Made by a program: the position numbers and the translations under genes
The notes under the pieces: generated by a model
What the model saw: the letters and a program-made list of their open reading frames with translations, nothing else
What the model was told of the DNA's origin: nothing
The model's database searches: none
Source of the DNA: an uncultured Bacteriovoracaceae bacterium
GTDB taxonomy: Bacteria; Desulfobacterota; Desulfomonilia; UBA1062
Reading direction: 5' to 3'
Assembly (NCBI GenBank): GCA_964400685.1
Contig: CAYNVT010000001.1
Coordinates: 41,845-105,844 of the forward strand
DNA length: 64,000 nucleotides
Part shown: positions 3,933-62,396 of the stretch, in pieces
How positions within the stretch are numbered: position 1 is the stretch's first letter
How the letters are laid out: each line of letters begins with the position of its first letter

Positions 3933-5822
3933 ATGTTGAGGAGAAGACATGCATTGTATTTGGTAATTGGAATGACACTGTTTTTCATGTCATCAGGCTT
4001 TCTTGGCATGTGCGTCGGTACTGATTACAAACCGGCAACAATCTCCATCACAAGCCCGGTAAAAGGTACAGTAATTGAAACCGGAACGCCTGCCATAATA
4101 ATCTCCGGAAAGGTAACAGCAGGAGACAGTGAGATACAGACGCTGAAGGCCCAGGGAAAGGTGATTGCATTTAATAATACTACCGGGGCTTTTTCTTACC
4201 AGCTTACAATGAATCAGACTAAAATATTTACGACATGTGAATTTACAGTAATTGATAAAAAGGGGATTGCCAATATTGAAAGGGTTTCCTATTCACTCGG
4301 GCAGGCATCCGAACCCGGGTCAGTCGGCGTAATAGACAATGCAATGAGACTGGTATTGACTGATTCTCTTCTCGATCAGGTTGAGATATTTGCAGGTAAC
4401 TTCATGAATACATGGAAAAATGACCTTGTTTATGGATGGGATAATGCCAGATACGGTTCACAGAATCCTGAAAGCCCGTTCGCTTCAATGTCGCCTGTCA
4501 TACCAACAGCAAGAATACCATTCGATGACGGTATGGACGGGTGGATACAGCTGTCACAGGAATACAGCGCATCTCAGGACAAGGGATACATAAACCTGGG
4601 CAAGATTTCCATATCAACCGACATACTGCCCACCAACCAGATAGCAGCCGGAATATTGATTACCCCTGAAAGCTGGGTAAATCCAAGAGGCGGCAGCGCG
4701 AAGGCCTTATTTGTCCAGGGACACTACAGGACTTATCCTCTCGGTATTGAGACAAGAATACACTTTACGGTTTATACGAACCTGGTAAACGTCTCCAACG
4801 TCAAACTGGGGCTTGGCGTCAATTCCAACAATAAGATTGTTGCAAAGCTGGATTTAAGGCAGGCAGATATTGATCTTGGGAATCCAACAATAGAATTTGG
4901 AGTTTTGGATCTGGAAGATGATCTGATTAACTTCGTACTCGACATAGTCAAGTGTCTGGTGCTGGAAAAGCTGGCCATTGAAATGGAGGTTGTCGGCGTA
5001 AATGACATAGCATTCGATCTTCTTGGATTGAACATCAGCGGCTGGCCAATGATGAGCACCGTATTTACAACGCCGACAGCTGATCAGATGATTATTGATC
5101 TGGGCCTGTCCGCCAAGCTTGCTGAAGACACCACACCGGCCGTACCCGACCTCACGGCATTCTACTCAACGCTTCCAAATACTCAGCCTGCTATAAACAT
5201 GACGTCCAGTGAGAATATCGCAGTTGCGATTTCGGATGATCTGATGAACGAGGCGGCCTTTGACCTGATACAACTCGGTATACTGAAAAATATGGACCTT
5301 ACATCTTATGTAAGGGATCTGCTTGGCAATCTTGCTACCGGCAAGACTATCATTGCAAAAGCGACGCTTGTTACTCCTCCTGTATTTGACTTCTCGGGAA
5401 CTGAGGTCATGCCTGATGGCATTACCCAGGTCGGCAGAGTCATAGTCAAAGATCTGTATTTCGATCTTTATTATAAATCATCTCTGCCGCCCTATCCTTA
5501 TGCGGCAAGAATGTGTGTCGATGTCGACCTTGACCTGCAGCTGAAGCTTTCCGATGACGGAAAGCATATACAGGCAATGCTCGATGTTCCTGAAAGCAGC
5601 TTCACCATCAACTACCTGTATACAAACCTGACAAATGCGGCATTGCTGCCTGAAATCGGGGGCAAGCTCACGGTCACGATTCTTGATATCCTCCTTCAGA
5701 AGCTTGTAGACATTGATATCCCGACTATTGACCTCTTCGGTCAGGGCATAGCGATCGGCATATCGGACACGGCACTGGTTAACAACTGCCTTGTTGCAAA
5801 GGTTAATGTGGCGGTTCAGTAG
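3933..5822 (+). CDS. hypothetical secreted protein (signal peptide, possible lipoprotein), no recognisable family
   Basis: 629 aa. A strong RBS (tAGGAGGtaataATG), an N-terminal hydrophobic signal (LYLVIGMTLFFMSSGFLGMC) and a beta-rich composition. It is preceded by ~550 bp of AT-rich DNA and followed by a strong terminator. Confidence 0.6.
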   Translation: MLRRRHALYLVIGMTLFFMSSGFLGMCVGTDYKPATISITSPVKGTVIETGTPAIIISGKVTAGDSEIQTLKAQGKVIAFNNTTGAFSYQLTMNQTKIFTTCEFTVIDKKGIANIERVSYSLGQASEPGSVGVIDNAMRLVLTDSLLDQVEIFAGNFMNTWKNDLVYGWDNARYGSQNPESPFASMSPVIPTARIPFDDGMDGWIQLSQEYSASQDKGYINLGKISISTDILPTNQIAAGILITPESWVNPRGGSAKALFVQGHYRTYPLGIETRIHFTVYTNLVNVSNVKLGLGVNSNNKIVAKLDLRQADIDLGNPTIEFGVLDLEDDLINFVLDIVKCLVLEKLAIEMEVVGVNDIAFDLLGLNISGWPMMSTVFTTPTADQMIIDLGLSAKLAEDTTPAVPDLTAFYSTLPNTQPAINMTSSENIAVAISDDLMNEAAFDLIQLGILKNMDLTSYVRDLLGNLATGKTIIAKATLVTPPVFDFSGTEVMPDGITQVGRVIVKDLYFDLYYKSSLPPYPYAARMCVDVDLDLQLKLSDDGKHIQAMLDVPESSFTINYLYTNLTNAALLPEIGGKLTVTILDILLQKLVDIDIPTIDLFGQGIAIGISDTALVNNCLVAKVNVAVQ

Positions 5823-5843
5823 CTGATATACAGGCAATAGAGC

Positions 5844-5877
5844 AAAAAGGCGTCCGGTAATTGCCGGACGCCTTTTT
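5844..5877. terminator. bidirectional rho-independent terminator
   Basis: aaaaaGGCGTCCGGtaattgCCGGACGCCttttt: a 9-bp GC stem flanked by an A-run and a T-run. It sits between convergent genes; the minus-strand gene's stop codon overlaps the tail. Confidence 0.75.
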
Positions 5878-6769
5878 ATTTTCTGATGGTATCTCTGTTG
5901 ATGATTGTGACCGGGATTGTGACGTCCGATGTTTCAGATAATAATTTCCTGATATCGATGCCGCCGGATACAAGCACTTCAATTCTTATATTTGAAAATA
6001 CCCTGTATATGAATTCCATGCTTTCAAACGGGAGCGTATTCTTGTAGACCGTCTCAAAACGTGATTTCATTTTCGTCAGACCCTTGATAAGCAGCCGTAT
6101 TCTTGAGGCTGCCTCTTCATGATGCAATGATTCAAAAGCCCCTAAAAAAACGAAGTCAGTTCCTTCAAGTATTAGAAAATCGGCAGGGTAAGCTATCCTG
6201 TAAAATTCCTTTATAAACTGATTTTCAATGGGCAGCGGCTTCAGGTTGCGGCTCAGAAGATACTGCTGCAACTCTTCATCGCTGTGGAGCAATCCAAGCA
6301 GTCCATTCGCAGATGTCTTTAATAATGCCTCTTCAATTATTGTCTGTGCAATTGAGTGAAAATTATCAGGATAGTATAATATTGCGGGCAGCGGTGCAAA
6401 TTTTTCTGCCTCATGAACGGCCTTTTCAAGTGGAATAACGATCTTATCAAAAGCGAGCATTATGCCGTATGAAAGGTGAACATCAGCCGATCGCGCGAGA
6501 TTCTTATCAGTAAATACCAGACAGAACCGGGACGAGATGATCTTTGAACAAACCTGTTCACAAAACATTATTTTATCATGATCTGACAGCTCCGGCATAA
6601 CATAGACATTAAGACCCTTTGCCATGAACAGATCGTTGAGGGTGCTTATCTCCATTTCATACTTCACCTTATCAGGTACGGCGATGAACACGTTTTTTTC
6701 GGAGCCTGCGAAATGACCGCAATAGGGTAGATCCAGCATGCAGGATTTTTTTTGTATAGTCTTTTTCAT
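5876..6769 (-). CDS. hypothetical protein; N-terminal region loosely resembles a Rossmann, TIR or nucleoside-deoxyribosyltransferase-like fold (tentative)
   Basis: 297 aa, contiguous with the upstream gene (stop at 6770, start at 6769). No confident family match by eye. Confidence 0.45.
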   Translation of the reverse strand: MKKTIQKKSCMLDLPYCGHFAGSEKNVFIAVPDKVKYEMEISTLNDLFMAKGLNVYVMPELSDHDKIMFCEQVCSKIISSRFCLVFTDKNLARSADVHLSYGIMLAFDKIVIPLEKAVHEAEKFAPLPAILYYPDNFHSIAQTIIEEALLKTSANGLLGLLHSDEELQQYLLSRNLKPLPIENQFIKEFYRIAYPADFLILEGTDFVFLGAFESLHHEEAASRIRLLIKGLTKMKSRFETVYKNTLPFESMEFIYRVFSNIRIEVLVSGGIDIRKLLSETSDVTIPVTIINRDTIRK

Positions 6770-9423: not shown

Positions 9424-10698
9424 TCAGACAAAAAAGATCATCCCTAAAGATATGCATGTCATCATTATGGCGGCGGGCAGGATATAGCGTCTTAGTCCCG
9501 GGCTGCCCATGAATATGACCATCAAACCCTTGGTGGCTGTGTTTGTGGCCGCGGCCAGGATAATTCCGGTTGCAGCGCTTGTCGCATCGAGAGCGCCCTG
9601 GCCTGAATTCATCTTGGCGAGCGTTATGGATATGGCGTCAACGTCTGCGATGCCTGCAAGAACACTGGATACTAGCACTCCGCTGCTGCCCCAGTTCATC
9701 TGGGCGAATTTTGATATGACCAGAATAATGGAAACCAGTATTGCAAAGCTTATTGCTGGCCACAACTCGAACGGGTTGGCAAAGGATACCTCAGCTGCGT
9801 TGTCTGCACGCCCGGCTTTTTTATAAAGCCAGAAACAATAGACGAGCCCAACTACCACCGGTACCAGCATAGGCAGGATGAGCCTTTCGGCCAGGGGCAT
9901 ATTCAACACCCCAACTATCACGATGATCCTGCCGAACATGACAGTCCATGCAATCGTTATTGCGAGGGCGAAGTTTTTTGCCAGCGTCTGCGCCTGCCTG
10001 CTCTGCTGCGTACATGAAAGGGTAAGTGCGGTGGATGACGCCAGCCCGCCCAACAGGCCGGTAAGGCCCATGCCCTTTGAAGGGCCGATCACTTTTATGA
10101 GTATGTAACCTATGAAACTGATGCCAGAAATCAGAATGACCAGAAGCCAAATGTTGAAGGGGTTGATCTGGTTGAACGGTTCCGGGCCGAATGTCCTGTT
10201 CGGAAGTATGGGAAGGATGATAGCGGTTATGACCGCGAACTTGAGTGTTGCAAACAGGTCTTCCCTGGACATGCGTTCCACTATGCCGTGGAGTTCCGGT
10301 TTTATGGATAAGAGCAGCATCGTCATGACGCCAAGTGCACCTGCTATTGCGATCTGGCCGTAATTGCACATGATGCCGCATATAAACGCGATCAGAGCCG
10401 ACACTTCGCCCGTAATGCCTGATTTCTGGTTGAGTGTGTCCGCATACTGAGTCACGGCGAGGATAATGCCGAAGGAACCTATCGTGATGATGAGCGGAAG
10501 GATACTGTGTGTGATATCCGATACAAAGGCGGAGGCGCAGCCCAGAAGCGAAATAAGCGCAAACGTCCTTATCCCGGCGGTGTGCTCCCTTTCCTCGCCC
10601 CTGCTGAATGAGAACTCGCGCTGCATGCCTATGAGGATGCCTATGAGGAGCGCAACGCCGAACCTTAAAAACAGATACGGATCCTGCTGTATGGTCAT
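9424..10698 (-). CDS. MgtC/SapB-family membrane protein with DUF4010-like C-terminal domain
   Basis: 424 aa polytopic membrane protein with N-terminal ALLIGILIGMQREFSF, an MgtC-like signature. Confidence 0.55.
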   Translation of the reverse strand: MTIQQDPYLFLRFGVALLIGILIGMQREFSFSRGEEREHTAGIRTFALISLLGCASAFVSDITHSILPLIITIGSFGIILAVTQYADTLNQKSGITGEVSALIAFICGIMCNYGQIAIAGALGVMTMLLLSIKPELHGIVERMSREDLFATLKFAVITAIILPILPNRTFGPEPFNQINPFNIWLLVILISGISFIGYILIKVIGPSKGMGLTGLLGGLASSTALTLSCTQQSRQAQTLAKNFALAITIAWTVMFGRIIVIVGVLNMPLAERLILPMLVPVVVGLVYCFWLYKKAGRADNAAEVSFANPFELWPAISFAILVSIILVISKFAQMNWGSSGVLVSSVLAGIADVDAISITLAKMNSGQGALDATSAATGIILAAATNTATKGLMVIFMGSPGLRRYILPAAIMMTCISLGMIFFV

Positions 10699-10858
10699 AA
10701 TATCCTTATCGGTTTATAAGCCGATTTATTCAATATTTATGTTGAGTTTATGGGATTAGAGAAATCCGGCAACATAAATTCTTTACAGTTTCATGACTGG
10801 GCTGTAATCTTGATCAACAGATTAATTCAGCTCATTCAAACCAGAAGACGGAGAAGAC

Positions 10859-13210
10859 ATGGCTCAACTCACTTTAAGGGAATGGATTGCAAGGGTCGAG
10901 AACGACAGGCGGTTCATGGAAAATGTCACCGCCTTCAAGAAGATCGATGCTTCATCGGGAGGTTTTTCTCCTTATCCTGAGTGGGTGGACAGAAGAATAA
11001 GAAAAGTGCTCGAAGCCCGGGGGATAAAAAAACTTTACAGCCATCAGTCGGATGCAGTCGAACTGGTGAGGAAAGGCCGAGATGTTGTCCTTGTAACACC
11101 TACGGCCAGCGGAAAGACTCTGTGCTACAATATCCCGGTACTTCAGGCTATCATTGAAAAGCCCGAGACCAGGGCCCTTTACATGTTCCCGACAAAGGCA
11201 CTCGCGCAGGACCAGATGCAGGAGGTCCACAGCCTGATAACCGAGCTCGATATGAATATCAAAACCTTCACCTATGACGGCGACACGCCCGATGATGCCC
11301 GGCAGGCTATCCGCAGGCAGGGCCATATCGTTATTACAAACCCTGACATGCTGCATACCGGCATTCTGCCGCACCATACGAAGTGGCAGAAACTCTTCGC
11401 CAACCTTAAATATATAGTGGTCGACGAGCTTCATATCTACCGCGGGATATTCGGCAGCCACCTTGCAAATGTCTTCAGAAGGCTAAGGCGCATATGCAAT
11501 TTTTACGGGAGCAACCCGGTGTTCATCTGTTGTTCGGCAACCGTTGCCAACCCCAGGGAGCATTCCGAAGCCGTGCTCGGGCGCGAGGCCGAGCTTATTG
11601 ACAAGAGCGGTGCGCCGCGAGGGGAAAGGACGGTTATCCTTTATAATCCGCCTGTGGTGAACCGCGAACTCGGCATCAGACAAAGCGCCATGGTTCCTGC
11701 GCGCGAAATCGCAAAAAGCCTTGTTGATAACGGTATCCAGACAATAATCTTTGCGACCTCAAGGCTAAATGTCGAGGTCCTGACGAAATATCTGAAGGAC
11801 GCGTTTGCTCAGGGCAAGCTTCCCGATGACAGCCGTTTCATTTCAGGCTACAGGGGCGGCTATCTGCCTGAGACAAGGCGCGAGATCGAAAAGGGCCTCA
11901 GGGATAAAGAGGTGATGGGTGTTGTCAGCACGAATGCGCTTGAGCTTGGCATAGACATCGGGAATCTGGAAGCGTGTATAATGACGGGGTATCCAGGTTC
12001 GATTGCAAGCCTCTGGCAGCAGGCGGGCCGGGCGGGCCGCAAGAAGGATGCGAGCCTTGCCGTACTTGTGGGCAAGAGCATGCCGGTCGATCAGTTCATG
12101 ATGGAAAACCCGGATTTTCTTTTCGGCAGTCCGCCCGAGCACTGCCGGATAAACCCTGATAATCTCCTGATATTGCTTCATCACATTAAGTGCGCTGCGT
12201 TCGAGTTGCCGTTTACTGAAGGAGAAAACTTCGGGAACGAAAATATAAAGGAGATACTCGACTATCTTGCCGAAAAAGGTGTTCTCCACAAGGCGGGCGA
12301 ACAATGGCATTTTTCCGCCGACAGCTATCCCGCTGATGATGTGAGCCTGCGTACGGTCAATCCGGACAATGTCGTGGTGGTTGATGAAACAGTTACCGGC
12401 TCAAGCAGGATAATTGCCGAAGTGGACTTCGACAGCGCGTTCACTACGGTTCATGAGGGTGCTATCTACATGCTGGAATCAAGGCAATACCATGTGGACC
12501 ACTTCGATGTCGAGAGGCGCAAAGCCTATGTCCATCAGGTGGACTCCGACTATTATACAGATGCCATGACCTGGACGAATGTCAGTGTGCTGGACGAATT
12601 TTCGAACAAAAAAAGCGGAGTAATAACAGTGGGCCACGGCGAGGTCGAGGTCGTGAGGAAGGTGGCCGGTTTCAAAAAGATAAAATTCTATACCGGCGAA
12701 AATGTAGGGTTCGGCGATGTAAACCTGCCGCAGAACGACATGCATACTACCAGCTATTGGTTCACCATCCCCTGGAATATGCTCGATACCCTTGAAATCA
12801 CGCGTGGACAGATACTGGACGGCCTGATGGGGCTGAGCTATTGTCTGCATCAGCTTGCGGCCATCTGGCTCATGTCTGATGTGCGTGATATAGACCGCGC
12901 TATCGGAGACAAGACCGGCCAGTGGTACATTAAAGGCGGCAGGGACAGGCTGGCTACAACTCAGAGCGCGGAAACGCCGGTTGGCCTTTTCGACCCCACG
13001 ATATTCATTTTTGACGCATACCCCGGCGGCATCGGCTTTTCAGAACTTTTATATGAGATGCACGAAGACATACTTGTTCATGCCAGAACGCTTATTAATG
13101 TCTGCCCCTGTGAAAACGGCTGCCCCTCGTGCGTGGGCCCGCGCCTTGAAGTGGGTCCCGATGCAAAGTATGCCGCCCTTGAGATACTGCAATTGATTCT
13201 GGGAAAATAA
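10859..13210 (+). CDS. mrfA: MrfA (YprA)-like DExH-box helicase with C-terminal DUF1998 four-cysteine zinc domain
   Basis: 783 aa. Walker A TPTASGKT, a DELH box, the QQAGRAGR motif and a C-terminal CPCENGCPSCVGP. These align closely with my recollection of B. subtilis YprA. Confidence 0.85.
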   Translation: MAQLTLREWIARVENDRRFMENVTAFKKIDASSGGFSPYPEWVDRRIRKVLEARGIKKLYSHQSDAVELVRKGRDVVLVTPTASGKTLCYNIPVLQAIIEKPETRALYMFPTKALAQDQMQEVHSLITELDMNIKTFTYDGDTPDDARQAIRRQGHIVITNPDMLHTGILPHHTKWQKLFANLKYIVVDELHIYRGIFGSHLANVFRRLRRICNFYGSNPVFICCSATVANPREHSEAVLGREAELIDKSGAPRGERTVILYNPPVVNRELGIRQSAMVPAREIAKSLVDNGIQTIIFATSRLNVEVLTKYLKDAFAQGKLPDDSRFISGYRGGYLPETRREIEKGLRDKEVMGVVSTNALELGIDIGNLEACIMTGYPGSIASLWQQAGRAGRKKDASLAVLVGKSMPVDQFMMENPDFLFGSPPEHCRINPDNLLILLHHIKCAAFELPFTEGENFGNENIKEILDYLAEKGVLHKAGEQWHFSADSYPADDVSLRTVNPDNVVVVDETVTGSSRIIAEVDFDSAFTTVHEGAIYMLESRQYHVDHFDVERRKAYVHQVDSDYYTDAMTWTNVSVLDEFSNKKSGVITVGHGEVEVVRKVAGFKKIKFYTGENVGFGDVNLPQNDMHTTSYWFTIPWNMLDTLEITRGQILDGLMGLSYCLHQLAAIWLMSDVRDIDRAIGDKTGQWYIKGGRDRLATTQSAETPVGLFDPTIFIFDAYPGGIGFSELLYEMHEDILVHARTLINVCPCENGCPSCVGPRLEVGPDAKYAALEILQLILGK

Positions 13211-13244
13211 ATCCTGATCTGAATAAATCAGGGTTATAATCAAT

Positions 13245-14585
13245 TTAATTATCGATTAGCAGAATCCTGACATCCATTACATTTGTTCGCGTAGGACCTG
13301 TCACGAGCAGATCGCCTGTCTCTTTCAGGAAATTATATGAATCATTGTCTTGAAGGTATGTATCGATATCGAGCCCCTTTGCTTTTCCTCGCGCAGCTGT
13401 TCTGGTATCGACAATTCCTCCGGCCGCATCTGTCGGGCCGTCCGAGCCGTCTGTTCCTCCGCTGAGAACAATGATGTTTTTATCCATGCCGGCGATTTCT
13501 TTTGCGGAAACGAGGGCGAATTCCTGGTTGCGCCCTCCCTTGCCGCTTCCTTTTATCTTCACCGTGGTTTCGCCTCCGCTGATTATGCAGGCGGGAAGAC
13601 TGGCGGAATTGCCTGAAAGGATTATCTGCCGGGCGATCGTGATATGCGCAAGAGCTACTTCTGTCGTATCGCCTTCAATGGCCGAAGAAAGGAGTATTGT
13701 GTGGTAGCTTGTCGATTCTGCCTCTTTCTTTGCTGCAGTGCAGGCCATAAGATTACTGCCGATAATTATGTTCGTTATCTTCTCGAAGATGGGATCTCCT
13801 GCCTTTGGCGTTTCCGGAATACAGCCTTCAGAACCTGCCTTGAGTCTTTCAATTACACTTGCAGGGAGCCTGTCTATGAGATCATATTTATTGATAATTC
13901 CCATTGCGTTATCGAACGAAGACCTGTCAGGTACAAATGGGCCCGAGGCGATTACATCCATGTCATCTCCAATGACATCTGAGAGCATAAGATTAATAAC
14001 CGTTGCAGGATATGCTATTCTGGCAAGCCCGCCACCTTTTGAAGATGAAAGGTGCTTTCTTACTGTATTTATTTCATGAATATCCGCCCCGCATTTGAGC
14101 ATCTCATCAGTTACTTTTCTTTTCTCGGCTAGTGATATTCCCTGAGCCGGCATCGGCAGAAGAGCTGAGCCTCCGCCTGATATGAGAGAGATAACGAGGT
14201 CGTTTTCCGTGCATGCATCAAGGAGATCGGAAATCTTCTGAGTCCCGGCCAAACCGTTCTCATCCGGTACCGGGTGACCTGCCTCGATAAGTTCGATTTT
14301 ATCAAGCTGTATGCCATAGCCGTACTTGATAACAACTGTCCCTTTGTTTATCCTGTCTCCCAGGATGGATTCAACAGCCTTCGCCATGGGTGCCGATGCC
14401 TTGCCTGCACCGACAACGACAACCCTGTGGTATTCATTCAGGTTGTATTTTTTATCGCCTGCGCTCAGCGTGTGATTGGTTAATGTCAGGAAAGATCTTA
14501 CCGCATTTTCAGGATCGACCGCAGCAACAGCGGCCTTGAATATTTTTATTGCATCATCTCTCATACTCGATGTCTTATCCGGCAT
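13245..14585 (-). CDS. glycerate 2-kinase, MOFRL family
   Basis: VVGAGKASAPMA and a MOFRL C-terminus. I prefer the ATG at 14585, preceded by GGAGG, over the ORF-track start at 14642. Confidence 0.8.
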   Translation of the reverse strand: MPDKTSSMRDDAIKIFKAAVAAVDPENAVRSFLTLTNHTLSAGDKKYNLNEYHRVVVVGAGKASAPMAKAVESILGDRINKGTVVIKYGYGIQLDKIELIEAGHPVPDENGLAGTQKISDLLDACTENDLVISLISGGGSALLPMPAQGISLAEKRKVTDEMLKCGADIHEINTVRKHLSSSKGGGLARIAYPATVINLMLSDVIGDDMDVIASGPFVPDRSSFDNAMGIINKYDLIDRLPASVIERLKAGSEGCIPETPKAGDPIFEKITNIIIGSNLMACTAAKKEAESTSYHTILLSSAIEGDTTEVALAHITIARQIILSGNSASLPACIISGGETTVKIKGSGKGGRNQEFALVSAKEIAGMDKNIIVLSGGTDGSDGPTDAAGGIVDTRTAARGKAKGLDIDTYLQDNDSYNFLKETGDLLVTGPTRTNVMDVRILLIDN

Positions 14586-59075: not shown

Positions 59076-60218
59076 ATGCAGTTTATTGACCTGAAGAAAC
59101 AGCAGGAAAGGATAAGGGAAAAAATTGAATCCGGTATTAGAAGGGTTCTGGATAGCGGCCAGTATATAATGGGGGCTGAAATCAAGGAGCTTGAAAAGAA
59201 ACTGTCAGAATATGTCGGCGCAAAAAATGCAATCGGATGCGCTTCCGGGACCGATGCCCTCTTGATGGCGCTTATGGCTTATGAAGTAGGCCCAGGTGAT
59301 GCTGTCTTTACAACGCCATTTACCTTTGTAGCGACTGCCGAAGTCATTTCGCTTCTCGGTGCTACGCCGGTTTTTGTTGATATTGAACCGGATACTTTCA
59401 ATATCGATCCTCAAAAACTTGAACAGGCGATTCTTGCGGTTGAGGACGGCGGCAGTAAGGAATATCCCCTTCCCATTGGGGCCGATGGACTGGTACCGAA
59501 AGGGATAATTCCTGTTGACCTTTTCGGGCAGACTGCAGATTACGCAAGGATCAATGATATAGCAGAAAGACACGGGCTTTTTGTGATCGAAGATGCCTGT
59601 CAATCATTCGGTGCTGAATACAAAGGTAAAAAAGCATGCTCCCTTGCCGATATTGCCTGTACATCTTTCTTTCCTGCAAAGCCTCTTGGCTGCTATGGAG
59701 ATGGGGGCATGGTTTTCACTGATGATGATGAGCTTGCGAAAAAAATGATTTCAATAAGGGTTCATGGTTCGGGCTCGGACAAGTATGACAATATCCGACT
59801 TGGAATCAATGGCAGGCTTGATACGATTCAGGCGGCCATACTACTTGCTAAGTTTGAAATATTTCCAGAAGAAATAGAGTTGAGGCAGGAAGTTGCAGAG
59901 AGGTATTCAAGGCTTTTAAAGGGTAAAGTAACAGTTCCCTTTGTTGAAAAAGGTTGTAAAAGTGCATGGGCGCAGTATTCAATTCTTTGCGAAAACCGTG
60001 ATGGAGTAATCGACAAGCTTAAGTCATCAGGCATCCCGACAGCCATATACTATCCGATACCTCTTCATCTTCAGGGCGCCTACAGGTATCTTGGCTACCA
60101 GAAAGGGGCGTTTCACGTTTCTGAAGAAATTGCGGGAAAAATCTTCAGTATTCCGATGCATCCATATCTTACAGAGGAAGAACAGGAAAATATTGCGAGT
60201 TTTTTGAGTGAGGCGTAA
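59076..60218 (+). CDS. DegT/DnrJ/EryC1/StrS-family sugar-nucleotide aminotransferase (WbpE/WlbC-like)
   Basis: 380 aa with a PLP-dependent fold; the start MQFIDLKKQQERI is typical of the family. AAGGAG RBS. Confidence 0.85.
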   Translation: MQFIDLKKQQERIREKIESGIRRVLDSGQYIMGAEIKELEKKLSEYVGAKNAIGCASGTDALLMALMAYEVGPGDAVFTTPFTFVATAEVISLLGATPVFVDIEPDTFNIDPQKLEQAILAVEDGGSKEYPLPIGADGLVPKGIIPVDLFGQTADYARINDIAERHGLFVIEDACQSFGAEYKGKKACSLADIACTSFFPAKPLGCYGDGGMVFTDDDELAKKMISIRVHGSGSDKYDNIRLGINGRLDTIQAAILLAKFEIFPEEIELRQEVAERYSRLLKGKVTVPFVEKGCKSAWAQYSILCENRDGVIDKLKSSGIPTAIYYPIPLHLQGAYRYLGYQKGAFHVSEEIAGKIFSIPMHPYLTEEEQENIASFLSEA

Positions 60219-60454
60219 GGAGTGAGGAGTGAAGAGAGTTCATTGCGATCTTAAAGTTTGGCAGGAATCGATGGAGCTTTTAAAAAAATATGTATGAATT
60301 TTCGTATAATATTCAAGTTGAGGAGACTTACGGTTTGAAAATCCAGAGATCATTTCTGAGCAGATTGAAAAAAGTTTCTGGCCTCCTCGGTGGCTTAATT
60401 AACTCTATAAGAGAAAGGAATATACAATGACTCCTCACTCCTCACGCCTCACTC
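60206..60454. repeat. 24-bp inverted repeat pair (60206-60229 and 60431-60454, 23/24 complementary) bracketing the degT / wbpB-D intergenic region
   Basis: gagtgaggcgtaaggagtgaggag versus the reverse complement of ctcctcactcctcacgcctcactc. The left copy spans the degT stop codon; the right copy encodes residues 2-9 (TPHSSRLT) of the next gene. Confidence 0.7.
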
Positions 60455-62016
60455 CTCACATAGCAATCACAGGTGCAGGATACTGGGGGAAAAACCTTGT
60501 AAGGAATTACATGGAATTAGGGGTATTGAAAACTGTCTGTGACACCAGTGTTCAAAATCTTACAGAGCTTGAAAAACAGTATCAGGGTCTCAGTCTCACG
60601 AGCAGTTTCAGTGAAGTTCTTGATGATAAAGATATAAAAGGTGTAGTGATTTCAGCACCTGCGGCGATGCATTTCTCTCTTGCAAGAGAGGCGCTTCTTT
60701 CTGGAAAGGATGTATTTGTTGAGAAACCGCTTTCCCTTGACCTGAGAGATGCAGAAGAACTTAGAGACATTGCCCTTAAAAAATCAAGAATCCTTATGGT
60801 AGGCCACCTGCTTCAGTACCATCCTTGTTTTATCAGACTCAAGGGGATGATCAGGGATGGACTGCTAGGACGCATTGACTATGTTTATTCAACAAGACTT
60901 AACTTTGGTAAAATCAGACGGGAGGAGGATATTTTGTGGAGTTTCGCCCCTCACGACATCTCAATGATCCTTTCGCTTGCCAATGAAACGCCTGAAGCTG
61001 TGATAGCAACCGGCGGCTATTATCTTCATAAAAAAATTGCTGATGTAACTACAACACACCTTGAATTTTCATCAGGGTTAAGGGCGCATGTTTTTGTTTC
61101 ATGGCTACATCCTTTCAAAGAGCAGAAACTCGTAGTTGTCGGCGAAAAAGGCATGGCGGTATTTAATGACACATTAACCTGGGCGGATAAGCTCCTGCTG
61201 TATCCTCATAATGTAAAATGGGAAAACGGCATTCCCGTACCGGATAAAAAAGATGCGATCAGGATTGAAGTGGAAAATGAGGAACCGCTCAAAAAAGAAT
61301 GCGAGCATTTCATATCATGCATTGAGACCAGGAATGAACCGTTAACCGACGGCAACGAAGGAATTGATGTTTTAAGGATTCTGAAGGCGGGGCAGCTTTC
61401 ACTTGATAATGCCAGCCAGAAAATATTCATCTCTGATCTTAGCCGGAAAGAGAAAACTTATTTTGTGCACAATTCTAGCTATATAGATGATGGTGTCGAA
61501 ATTGGCGAGGGTTCAAAGATCTGGCATTTCAGCCACATACTTAAAGGAACGAAGATAGGGAAAGAATGCAATATAGGCCAGAACGTGGTTATAGGTCCGG
61601 ATTCCACGATAGGTAACGGGTGCAAGATTCAGAACAATGTATCGATCTATAAAGGTGTCATGCTGGAGGACGATGTCTTCTGCGGTCCTTCAATGGTCTT
61701 CACAAATGTCTATAATCCCAGGGCACACATTTCAAAGATGAATGAAATGAGGCCGACTCTCTTAAAAAAAGGTGTGACAATTGGAGCGAATGCAACGATA
61801 GTATGCGGCCACACGATCGGCGAATACGCATTTATAGGTGCAGGAGCAGTTGTCACAAGGGGTGCCTCCGCACATGCTCTTATGGTAGGTAACCCTGCAA
61901 AACAGATCGGCTGGATGTGCCAGTGCGGTGAAAAACTGGATGATGACCTGATTTGCAGCCATTGCGGGAAAGCATATACGAATACTCAATCAGAAGGGCT
62001 AGCATTAAAGAAATAA
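60427..62016 (+). CDS. bifunctional fusion: N-terminal Gfo/Idh/MocA oxidoreductase (WbpB-like) plus C-terminal hexapeptide-repeat N-acetyltransferase (WbpD/WlbB-like)
   Basis: N-terminal [12 protein letters not shown] Rossmann motif and a GFO_IDH_MocA core. The C-terminal ~190 aa is a left-handed beta-helix with repeated [LIV]G hexapeptides and a CxxC..CxxC tail. Confidence 0.75.
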
Positions 62017-62189
62017 ATTTTTTTGCTTTGTTACCTGGTTTATAATTTATAATAAATTAATTATCGATTCTTTTTAAGAAATTTGTAGTTGCGATTTCCA
62101 GTTTTCAATGGTTAGATGAAAGCAGATTGATTCCATTTAAATTGCGATCAGTTAATTTGATTAATTGTATATTCAACAGGGAGGATGTT

Positions 62190-62396
62190 ATGGATTGGCT
62201 GCTGACTGTTGAACTGGAAGAGTCAATAGTGGAGAAAATTGACAGGACTGCAAAAAGATTGGGAAAAACGAGAATAGAGATAGCGAATGTGATAGTGGGT
62301 CATATCCTTGAAAATCTCATGGCTGAAAAACAGAATAAAGAATATGACATGAAGATGAATCTGTTTGATGCATTAAAAAAGAATAATCCAAAATAG
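62190..62396 (+). CDS. ribbon-helix-helix (RHH; CopG/Arc-like) DNA-binding protein, orphan
   Basis: I prefer the start MDWLLTVELEESIVEKIDRTAKRLGKTRIEIANVIVGHILENL (beta strand, helix, helix), with GGGAGGA 6 nt upstream of the ATG at 62190. The ORF-track start at 62127 lacks an RBS. Confidence 0.5.
   Translation: MDWLLTVELEESIVEKIDRTAKRLGKTRIEIANVIVGHILENLMAEKQNKEYDMKMNLFDALKKNNPK

Follow-up and report, generated by a model that had tools for sequence, protein, structure and literature searches.

Results

Organisation of the junction between degT and the fusion gene

The DNA analysed here is a 64-kb stretch of contig CAYNVT010000001.1, called the window throughout, and this study concerns a long inverted repeat, together with the spacer enclosed by it, at one gene junction of the window. 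The upstream gene, degT, encodes a DegT-family aminotransferase. The product of the downstream gene is 529 aa long and combines GFO/IDH/MocA and hexapeptide-transferase domains, and the gene is therefore regarded as a WbpB-WbpD-type fusion. The degT stop codon and the ATG of the fusion gene are separated by 208 nucleotides (nt; 60219-60426), and this ATG, at 60427, is the sole start in its open reading frame (ORF) that retains the GxGxxG Rossmann motif. The features recognised at the junction are given below; L086 and L089 are loci of relatives, described later, of which the first carries an intact form of the element (the cassette) and the second is cassette-free.

59076-60218, + strand: degT, DegT-family aminotransferase gene (ORF list; profile matches)
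60206..60236, + strand: left arm (Tandem Repeats Finder (TRF), period 7 x4.4, GAGTGAG; alignable with the left arm beside the intact gene in L086)
60216..60218, + strand: degT stop codon TAA, inside the left arm (ORF 59076-60218)
60415..60419, + strand: Shine-Dalgarno-like AAGGA, 7 nt 5' of the fusion ATG (read from the sequence)
60427..60429, + strand: fusion-gene ATG (L086/L089 alignment; identical ATG in cassette-free L089)
60430..60459, + strand: right arm (TRF, period 7 x4.3, ACTCCTC; inverted repeats; L086 alignment; ortholog N-termini)

The inverted repeat that the first-pass annotation of this DNA had placed around the 208-bp spacer is real. A repeat search of the window gave arms of 25 nt (60206-60230 / 60430-60454) that are complementary at 24/25 positions (96%), and a looser pairing covers 29 nt at 86% (60208-60236 / 60431-60459). 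According to TRF, both arms are tandem heptamer arrays, the units of which read, in order, GAGTGAG GCGTAAG GAGTGAG GAGTGAA GAG on the left and ACTCCTC ACTCCTC ACGCCTC ACTCCTC AC on the right. The left arm covers the degT stop, as had been claimed, and the final residues of DegT (..SEA) together with this stop form its first units. Codons 2-11 of the fusion protein, a 10-residue N-terminal extension, are translated from the right arm. The 14-mer GAGTGAGGAGTGAG, with up to 2 mismatches allowed, occurs 7 times in the window, all 7 inside the two arms, while the expected count is 0.26 and a count of 7 was reached by 0/100 shuffles. Complementarity of the arms by chance is excluded. No Rfam family matched the arms, either in window 59900-60800 or in ten intact cassettes, and no rRNA match was found around the cassette in 59900-60800 by the same means.

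The spacer is a broken PF05635 gene

Translation of the spacer yields ...DLKVWQESMELLKK in one frame and MYEFSYNIQVEETYGL..., plus a 16-residue piece, in another. The 67-aa conceptual peptide obtained by repairing the frame matches PF05635 (E 0.0033; 18 bits, with a cutoff of 33.8 bits) and NF008911 (E 1.7e-4), both under the curated cutoffs. Its only match in a large protein database was P0001, a PF05635 protein of 118 aa, which aligned to its N-terminal 45 and C-terminal 20 residues with a gap of ~52 residues between them. The PF05635 protein of L086 detects the window by tblastn (E 7e-10), and the pseudogene, where sequence is retained, has a nucleotide identity of 85-87% to the intact gene of L086. 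The remnant consists of the following parts:

60229..60430, + strand: PF05635 pseudogene (23S_rRNA_IVP / S23p / Avd-like four-helix bundle), from GTG start 60229 to the original stop TGA 60428-60430
60283..60289, + strand: A7 run; one extra base in this stretch compared with L086 (L086 alignment; frame translations)
60336..60337, + strand: junction of a ~163-bp internal deletion, L086 about 5748-5910 being absent (alignment columns 208-370)
60368..60373, + strand: A6 run, one A more than in L086 (L086 alignment; translations)
60290..60430, + strand: residual 46-codon ORF (ORF list; compared with the L086 protein)

The GTG start of the cassette gene is overlapped by, and lies just downstream of, the G-rich end of the left arm. 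Owing to the extra base around the A7 run, the frame that opens at this GTG closes at TGA 60295-60297. The deletion of 163 bp and the extra A at 60368-60373 amount to a net loss of 162 nt, which brings the last ~19 codons back into the original frame. The residual ORF thus has its ends in frame and its middle out of frame, and it closes with an ATGA that overlaps the fusion start. Since the deletion and the indels displace the middle of this ORF, the cassette gene is dead here; its arms survive almost perfectly paired. The AAGGA motif falls in the codons with which the pseudogene ends (..RERNIQ*) and, relative to the stem that the arms can form, on the loop side; it is the putative ribosome-binding site of the fusion gene, and GAAAGGA is kept in L086 and in a more distant locus, L001. 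Judged from the sequence, the element is very probably a decayed PF05635 cassette. No further copy of the arm motif or of the PF05635 remnant was found in the 64-kb window (motif count; tblastn). A possible second remnant on the minus strand at 13145-13477, indicated by weak tblastn matches, contained many stops on translation and was dismissed as noise.

Intact, empty and decayed states among relatives

Orthologs of the fusion protein fall into two N-terminus groups. Most open directly with M..IA(I/V)xGxGYWG; the closest ortholog, P0002 (91% identical), begins MTPHPSSLTPNSSHLLSH-IAII. The contigs of P0002 (L086-L088) share the gene order of the window, namely HrcA, ArgS, SPOR, AMP ligase (minus strand), DegT, X and the fusion gene, where X is an intact 120-aa PF05635 gene with homologous arms, the stop of which overlaps the fusion ATG as ATGA. 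The X protein of L086 scores 125 bits on PF05635 and matches PDB 2GSC with E 4.9e-33. The L089 locus, whose fusion protein is 84% identical, has the same synteny and is cassette-free, with a 47-nt spacer, and in the contigs of P0004, P0005 and P0006 the fusion gene directly follows DegT with no PF05635 gene at the junction. The DegT protein has 380 aa in the window and L086 and 379 aa in the cassette-free relatives. A scan of metagenomes returned no closer relatives of the L086 protein (best 63% identity).

The empty site in L089 reads ...GGAGAACACAATG / ATAGCAATT..., its start being ...ACAATG / ATAGCAAT..., and the filled site in the window reads ...GGAATATACAATG / (30-nt arm) / ATAGCAATC..., slashes marking the junctions. 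It follows from this alignment that both sites share one ATG, and that the right arm adds 30 nt in frame between codons 1 and 2. The odd N-terminus of the fusion protein is therefore specified by the right arm, as the first-pass annotation held, and orthologs without the element begin M-IAI... directly; the further idea that the element supplies a new start codon fails, because the same ATG stands in the empty site. The comparison of orthologous spacers likewise bears out the view of the arms as termini of an inserted element, which is present in the window and L086 and absent in the next relatives. It does not bear out the label of a miniature inverted-repeat transposable element (MITE), since the spacer is a PF05635 gene with frameshifts and an internal deletion, the intact ortholog of which stands at this place in L086, and since the arms differ between cassettes.

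In a three-way alignment, four differences separate the window cassette from that of L086: the ~163-bp deletion, one extra base at each of two A-runs and a right arm that is shorter by three heptamers. The nucleotide identity between the two loci is 86% for degT, where 123/160 differences are at third codon positions, and 88% for the fusion gene. As the identity of the remnant is similar to that of the flanking genes, the decay is either recent or the remnant is not yet freely evolving. A few kb 3' of the fusion gene, L086 also carries an IS110-family transposase (9913-11151) between genes that are adjacent in L089.

Arm sequences and other cassettes at the same gene start

In the window, the left arm is GGAGTGAGGAGTGA and the reverse complement of the right arm is GGAGTGAGGAGTGA; the corresponding sequences in L086 are GGAGTTAAGGGTGA and GGAGTTAGGGGTGA. 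Between the two genomes, two arm positions have changed on both arms in a complementary manner and one position is uncompensated. With 24/25 pairs, the arms of the decayed window copy match each other better than those that flank the intact gene of L086 (20/23).

Other lineages, too, have cassettes at this gene start. In L001, where the downstream gene is 54% identical, an intact cassette with degenerate heptamers follows another upstream gene. The L170 junction holds (CCATCAC)n beside a truncated, 51-aa C-terminal PF05635 ORF, and the L171 junction holds (CAACCCG)n with no recognisable ORF remaining. Further intact cassettes lie nearby in both L170 and L171, and the PF05635 copy of L171 also gives a weak PF22296 bAvd match. 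The truncated cassette of L170 (1-2500) adjoins an oppositely oriented large serine recombinase gene, and a second, intact PF05635 gene lies two genes downstream (6228-6632); the several copies in L170 indicate that polysaccharide clusters can hold several cassettes. Just 5' of the translated heptamer array of the fusion gene in L171, a 31-nt inverted repeat (313-343 / 532-562) built of ~10-nt tandem units (GACACAGATT...) surrounds 188 nt without a recognisable ORF, and could represent a cassette that has eroded fully or another sort of hairpin element.

Survey of PF05635 loci

The flanks of PF05635 genes were compared, by heuristic flank scores, at loci encoding relatives of two query proteins (about 44-64% identity). 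The first set comprised 80 loci of P0001 relatives in reference genomes, of which 79 were scored along with 404 control positions, and spanned Proteobacteria, Bacteroidota, Acidobacteriota, Planctomycetota, Nitrospirota, Firmicutes, candidate phyla and others. The second, independent set came from metagenomes and comprised 71 loci with 290 control positions. An inverted match between flanks with a score of at least 12 was found at 86/150 loci of both sets, compared with 3/694 controls, and the separate counts were as follows:

First set, inverted flank match score >=12: 36/79 loci; controls 3/404
First set, dominant period-7 run on >=1 flank: 44/79 loci; controls 14/404
First set, dominant period-7 run on both flanks: 24/79 loci; controls 0/404
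First set, direct (same-orientation) match score >=12: 13/79 loci; controls 1/404
Metagenome set, inverted match score >=12: 50/71 loci; controls 0/290
Metagenome set, dominant period-7 run on >=1 flank: 44/71 loci; controls 10/290
Metagenome set, dominant period-7 run on both flanks: 17/71 loci; controls 0/290

Among the strong flanks of the metagenome set, period 7 was dominant in 60/73 and period 8 in 9/73. The repeat unit depends on the lineage (GGTGACA, CGTGAAT, GGGACAA, GGGAATG, GGTTAGT, GGTTTTC and so on), and the unit of the window recurs in L008, a metagenome-assembled genome of Betaproteobacteria. At two loci of a single species, Adhaeribacter soli (L051 and L055), the units and their orientation differ. 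The arrays are polar: G prevails over C in left arrays (G 428, C 116), and C over G in right arrays (C 488, G 198). Stop codons are missing from every frame in 25/43 right arrays and are present in all three frames in 14/30 left arrays, and the stop of the upstream ORF falls inside the left array in 12/30 cases. Right arrays lie within the downstream ORF in 10/43 cases and upstream of its start in 22/43. The cassette gene ends in ATGA at 17/81 loci. Cassettes are co-oriented with the upstream neighbour at 106/121 loci, with the downstream neighbour at 94/110 and with both at 74/93. The layout in the window is thus one recurring configuration of a general, polar, operon-embedded design.

At two loci, L008 and L010, S-adenosylhomocysteine (SAH) riboswitches (RF01057, above gathering score; 2404-2492 and 2381-2457, respectively) precede the cassette by ~1.5 kb. 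The gene directly 3' of the cassette encodes a protein opening with the SFEFFP motif typical of MetF, the N-terminus of which is extended at both loci by residues that the arm encodes. Riboswitch and cassette are separated by what is presumably ahcY, and the cassette appears to ride inside a riboswitch-controlled operon.

Variant arrangements were also encountered. At L013, L030, L040, L073, L051 and L052, where the PF05635 gene lies near position 4000, an array in the same orientation stands on both flanks, or both orientations occur on each flank (such direct matches are those counted at 13/79 loci), which points to hairpins in tandem, to cassettes next to one another or to 'solo' hairpins that lack an ORF. 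The units are of 8 nt instead of 7 nt in L012, L028, L043 and L077. The intact L086 protein had no match in PADLOC.

Predicted RNA structure and transcription signals

The stem that had been suggested for the transcript is supported by RNA folding of 60190-60470, for which the predicted energy was -91.1 kcal/mol (z = -5.8, equalled by 0/200 shuffles) with the arms as the closing stem in both the minimum free energy and the centroid structures. The L086 cassette folds with a terminal stem too. No terminator-like site was found between degT and the fusion gene, and a promoter or terminator search of the spacer gave nothing above shuffle expectation. Given the lack of a terminator-like site in the spacer, a common transcript of degT and the fusion gene is probable, and in it the arms are able to pair.

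Other observations around the fusion gene

A small ORF 3' of the fusion gene (window 62127-62396) has a weak CopG ribbon-helix-helix match (PF01402, E 0.0021, below cutoff), and a small uncharacterised ORF is found at the equivalent position in L086 and L089. The C-terminal tail of the fusion protein (window 61920-62016) contains a CxC...CxxC pattern with a weak zinc-ribbon match (PF13248, E 0.04), an unusual appendage for a WbpD-type acetyltransferase.

Discussion

Nature of the element and its possible effects on the fusion gene

The presented results give good reason to regard the arms as terminal heptamer inverted repeats of a small PF05635 gene cassette, resembling the intervening sequences (IVS) of rRNA, that is situated between the degT stop and codon 2 of the fusion gene. 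The copy in the window is most likely a tolerated relic of a selfish cassette. The cassette is accommodated without harm to its neighbours: the G-rich left array provides the last codons and the stop of degT, the last codons of the cassette carry the Shine-Dalgarno-like AAGGA, and the C-rich right array, stop-free in every frame, is read as a 10-residue extension after the ancestral ATG.

A close counterpart of this arrangement is the IVS in the 23S rRNA of Coxiella burnetii, which contains a PF05635 ('S23p') ORF preceded by three tandem GACAGAT heptamers, strain-variable in number (PMC4990558). The terminal inverted repeats of this IVS form a 28-bp stem, which is cut by RNase III in vitro at sites mapped by RACE (rapid amplification of cDNA ends), and its ORF bears signs of decay, including a 176-bp deletion in one strain (PMC4990558). 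The S23p protein is probably not made, and the authors concluded that the RNA matters more than the protein, while origin and function remain unclear (PMC4990558). In the degT-fusion mRNA of the window, the arms would close a helix of 25-29 bp over the ~200-nt remnant, and its formation, if only in a transient manner, is fairly probable. If the rRNA IVS is taken as a guide, RNase III would accept this helix as a substrate, and its actual cleavage is possible rather than probable. Since AAGGA and the ATG are on the loop side, a stable stem or a cut would shut the fusion gene off instead of setting it free. Ribosomes that terminate at the degT stop, 10 nt into the left arm, should hold the helix open; the net effect could be either that translation of the fusion gene is coupled to that of degT or that the relic is plainly tolerated. 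An adaptive regulatory role of the helix at this locus is unlikely.

Several observations weigh against the interpretation given above, or at least against parts of it. Taken as a whole, the L086 cassette with its intact gene does not fold better than shuffles (z = -0.83). Over 96 loci, mismatches between arms were of the G·U type in 82 cases and of the A·C type in 100 (p = 0.21); with no G·U excess, selection on pairing specific to the sense RNA is unsupported, and a DNA-level process would give equal symmetry, so that this outcome leaves room for such a process or for protein binding. A cut by RNase III would part the fusion ORF from AAGGA and the ATG, which sits badly with a gene that is conserved and presumably expressed; this objection would fall if cuts were rare or if the stem were blocked by translation. 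Moreover, local alignment of the L089 spacer to the cassette was no better than that of shuffles (77-288/500 shuffles reach the score), so that the two are not significantly similar; the empty site may reflect loss of the cassette in L089 as well as its gain elsewhere.

Alternative explanations

The alternative that survives best is that the arms act at the DNA level, as terminal repeats used in insertion or excision through a hairpin or cruciform, slippage or a recombinase; pairing in RNA would then be a by-product, and the window copy could loosely be called a 'MITE-like' relic. The presence and absence of the cassette at the orthologous junction in close relatives, the different-unit cassettes at the same gene start in L001, L170 and L171, the arm mismatches without G·U bias, and the array length that differs by whole units, both between the window and L086 and between Coxiella strains, are all in accord with it. 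However, no target-site duplication is visible by eye at the window junctions, the flanks of which (...GTTTTTT / GAGTGAG... and ...CTCCTCAC / ATAGCAAT...) have no shared direct repeat, and the gene maps contain no consistently adjacent transposase or recombinase. The two Adhaeribacter soli loci differ in units and orientation, unlike terminal inverted repeats bound by a transposase, the arm motif is without a second copy in the window, and the equivalent stem in rRNA is a demonstrated RNA substrate (PMC4990558). Altogether, the DNA-level explanation is considered rather unlikely.

A second alternative is that the heptamer arrays bind the cassette's own pentameric, Avd-like protein, with approximately one repeat per subunit, for autoregulation or mobilisation, and that the sites have outlived the protein here. 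The PF05635 family forms homopentamers (2GSC; PMC4990558, PMC10053308) and resembles Avd of diversity-generating retroelements (DGRs), an accessory protein essential for retrohoming (PMC10053308). The arrays typically have at least 3 tandem units, and the unit sequence is lineage-specific and changes on both arms together. The window arms are nevertheless still well paired though the protein is gone, and, as mentioned, the Coxiella protein is probably not made (PMC4990558). This proposal, which rests on inferential grounds, appears distinctly improbable.

The first-pass annotation had also suggested a riboregulator or RNase III site, that is, a stem which evolved at this locus to control the fusion gene. 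The RNase III part of this idea has a precedent in the Coxiella IVS (PMC4990558); the part that concerns origin at this locus does not hold, since the arms come with the cassette. A strong stem is predicted over fusion codons 2-10, and a degT stop within the left arm would permit translational coupling at a distance. Nonetheless, the arms are inherited with the cassette and are present around the intact L086 gene, they are general in PF05635 cassettes of unrelated operons, and the same gene pair has a plain spacer of 43-59 nt in close relatives. Local evolution of a riboregulator is therefore largely refuted by the synteny series and must be regarded as very improbable. Finally, the probability of chance complementarity or a low-complexity artefact is practically nil: tandem repeats do inflate alignment scores, but the shuffled sequences matched neither the motif count nor the fold, homologous arms occur in L086 and L001, and the control rates were 3/404 and 0/290.

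Significance

Where the bacterial rRNA IVS and their S23p/PF05635 ORF come from, and what they do, has been debated since about 1990 (PMC4990558). The junction described here offers a clean natural series of empty, intact and decayed states, and points to hundreds of equivalent cassettes in ordinary operons; such a series and so many equivalent cassettes make insertion, the 7-nt unit and arm pairing accessible to comparative genomics and simple assays. The instance in the window appears to be an ordinary relic, and its class appears to be under-described. The results are also of importance for annotation. N-terminal extensions encoded by repeats are scars of cassettes, not real domain features, other examples being the MetF starts in L008/L010 and the 7-residue repeats TRNPQPA (P0067) and HPSPxTH (P0097), and 'spacers' such as that of the window can conceal pseudogenes.

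Beyond the single locus, we tentatively put forward a more general picture, which falls somewhat short of probable. The cassettes may form a widespread and largely undescribed class of selfish, operon-embedded PF05635 elements, of which the ORF-bearing 23S IVS would be the rRNA-resident minority. The left arm, with three-frame stops and a G-rich sequence resembling a ribosome-binding site, and the open right arm would be co-evolving and built for harmless insertion at gene boundaries, and their complementarity could be kept by selection through RNase III or RNA structure, by a hairpin process acting on the DNA, or by the encoded Avd-like pentamer, if it binds them. No account of PF05635 cassettes with heptamer inverted repeats in protein-coding operons was found in the literature, and on such cassettes outside rRNA, on PF05635 in combination with heptamers and on links to cyanobacterial STRR sequences nothing of relevance turned up apart from PMC4990558, PMC4679880 and PMC10053308, but the literature searched was incomplete and this is weak evidence.

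Comparison with known systems

With MITEs, the element shares its small size, terminal inverted repeats, intergenic position and presence or absence among relatives. It differs from them in that the sequence inside is a pseudogene with an intact ortholog in place and not a transposase remnant, in that the heptamer arms vary between copies, and in that there is no multi-copy family within the window. The likeness to Avd of DGRs is confined to the protein family, a pentameric four-helix bundle; DGR Avd genes have not been described as bracketed by heptamer inverted repeats. No reverse transcriptase stands beside the cassette in the Pfam-annotated gene map of the syntenic L086 (6 kb either side), and no template/variable repeat pair turned up in repeat scans of the window.

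Heptamer direct repeats beside start codons are known from Beggiatoaceae, cyanobacteria and Bacteroidetes, with no link to a PF05635 gene (PMC4679880). These TAACTGA repeats and the cyanobacterial short tandemly repeated repetitive (STRR) sequences resemble the arms in having 7-nt tandem units directly beside start codons, and in the TAACTGA repeats the period of 7 likewise gives three-frame stops in one orientation and a readable array in the other (PMC4679880). They are, however, mainly direct repeats without an enclosed PF05635 gene, whereas the window arrays are an inverted pair around a gene.

Of the structural features of the Coxiella IVS, the window element has all but the defining location, since it belongs to an mRNA. 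It differs from the 23S IVS of Coxiella, Leptospira and others in its position in a protein-coding operon and not in 23S rRNA helix 25 or 45, and in arms that overlap the coding ends of the neighbours (the degT stop and fusion codons 2-11). Furthermore, excision is harmless in rRNA, whereas in the window, where cleavage is only predicted, it would remove the start signals of the fusion gene. The two nevertheless have in common the PF05635/S23p ORF, 5' tandem heptamers of variable number, a stem closed by long terminal inverted repeats, and an ORF prone to decay through deletions, which the RNA structure outlasts. The cassette class also bears on the long-standing question of the IVS.

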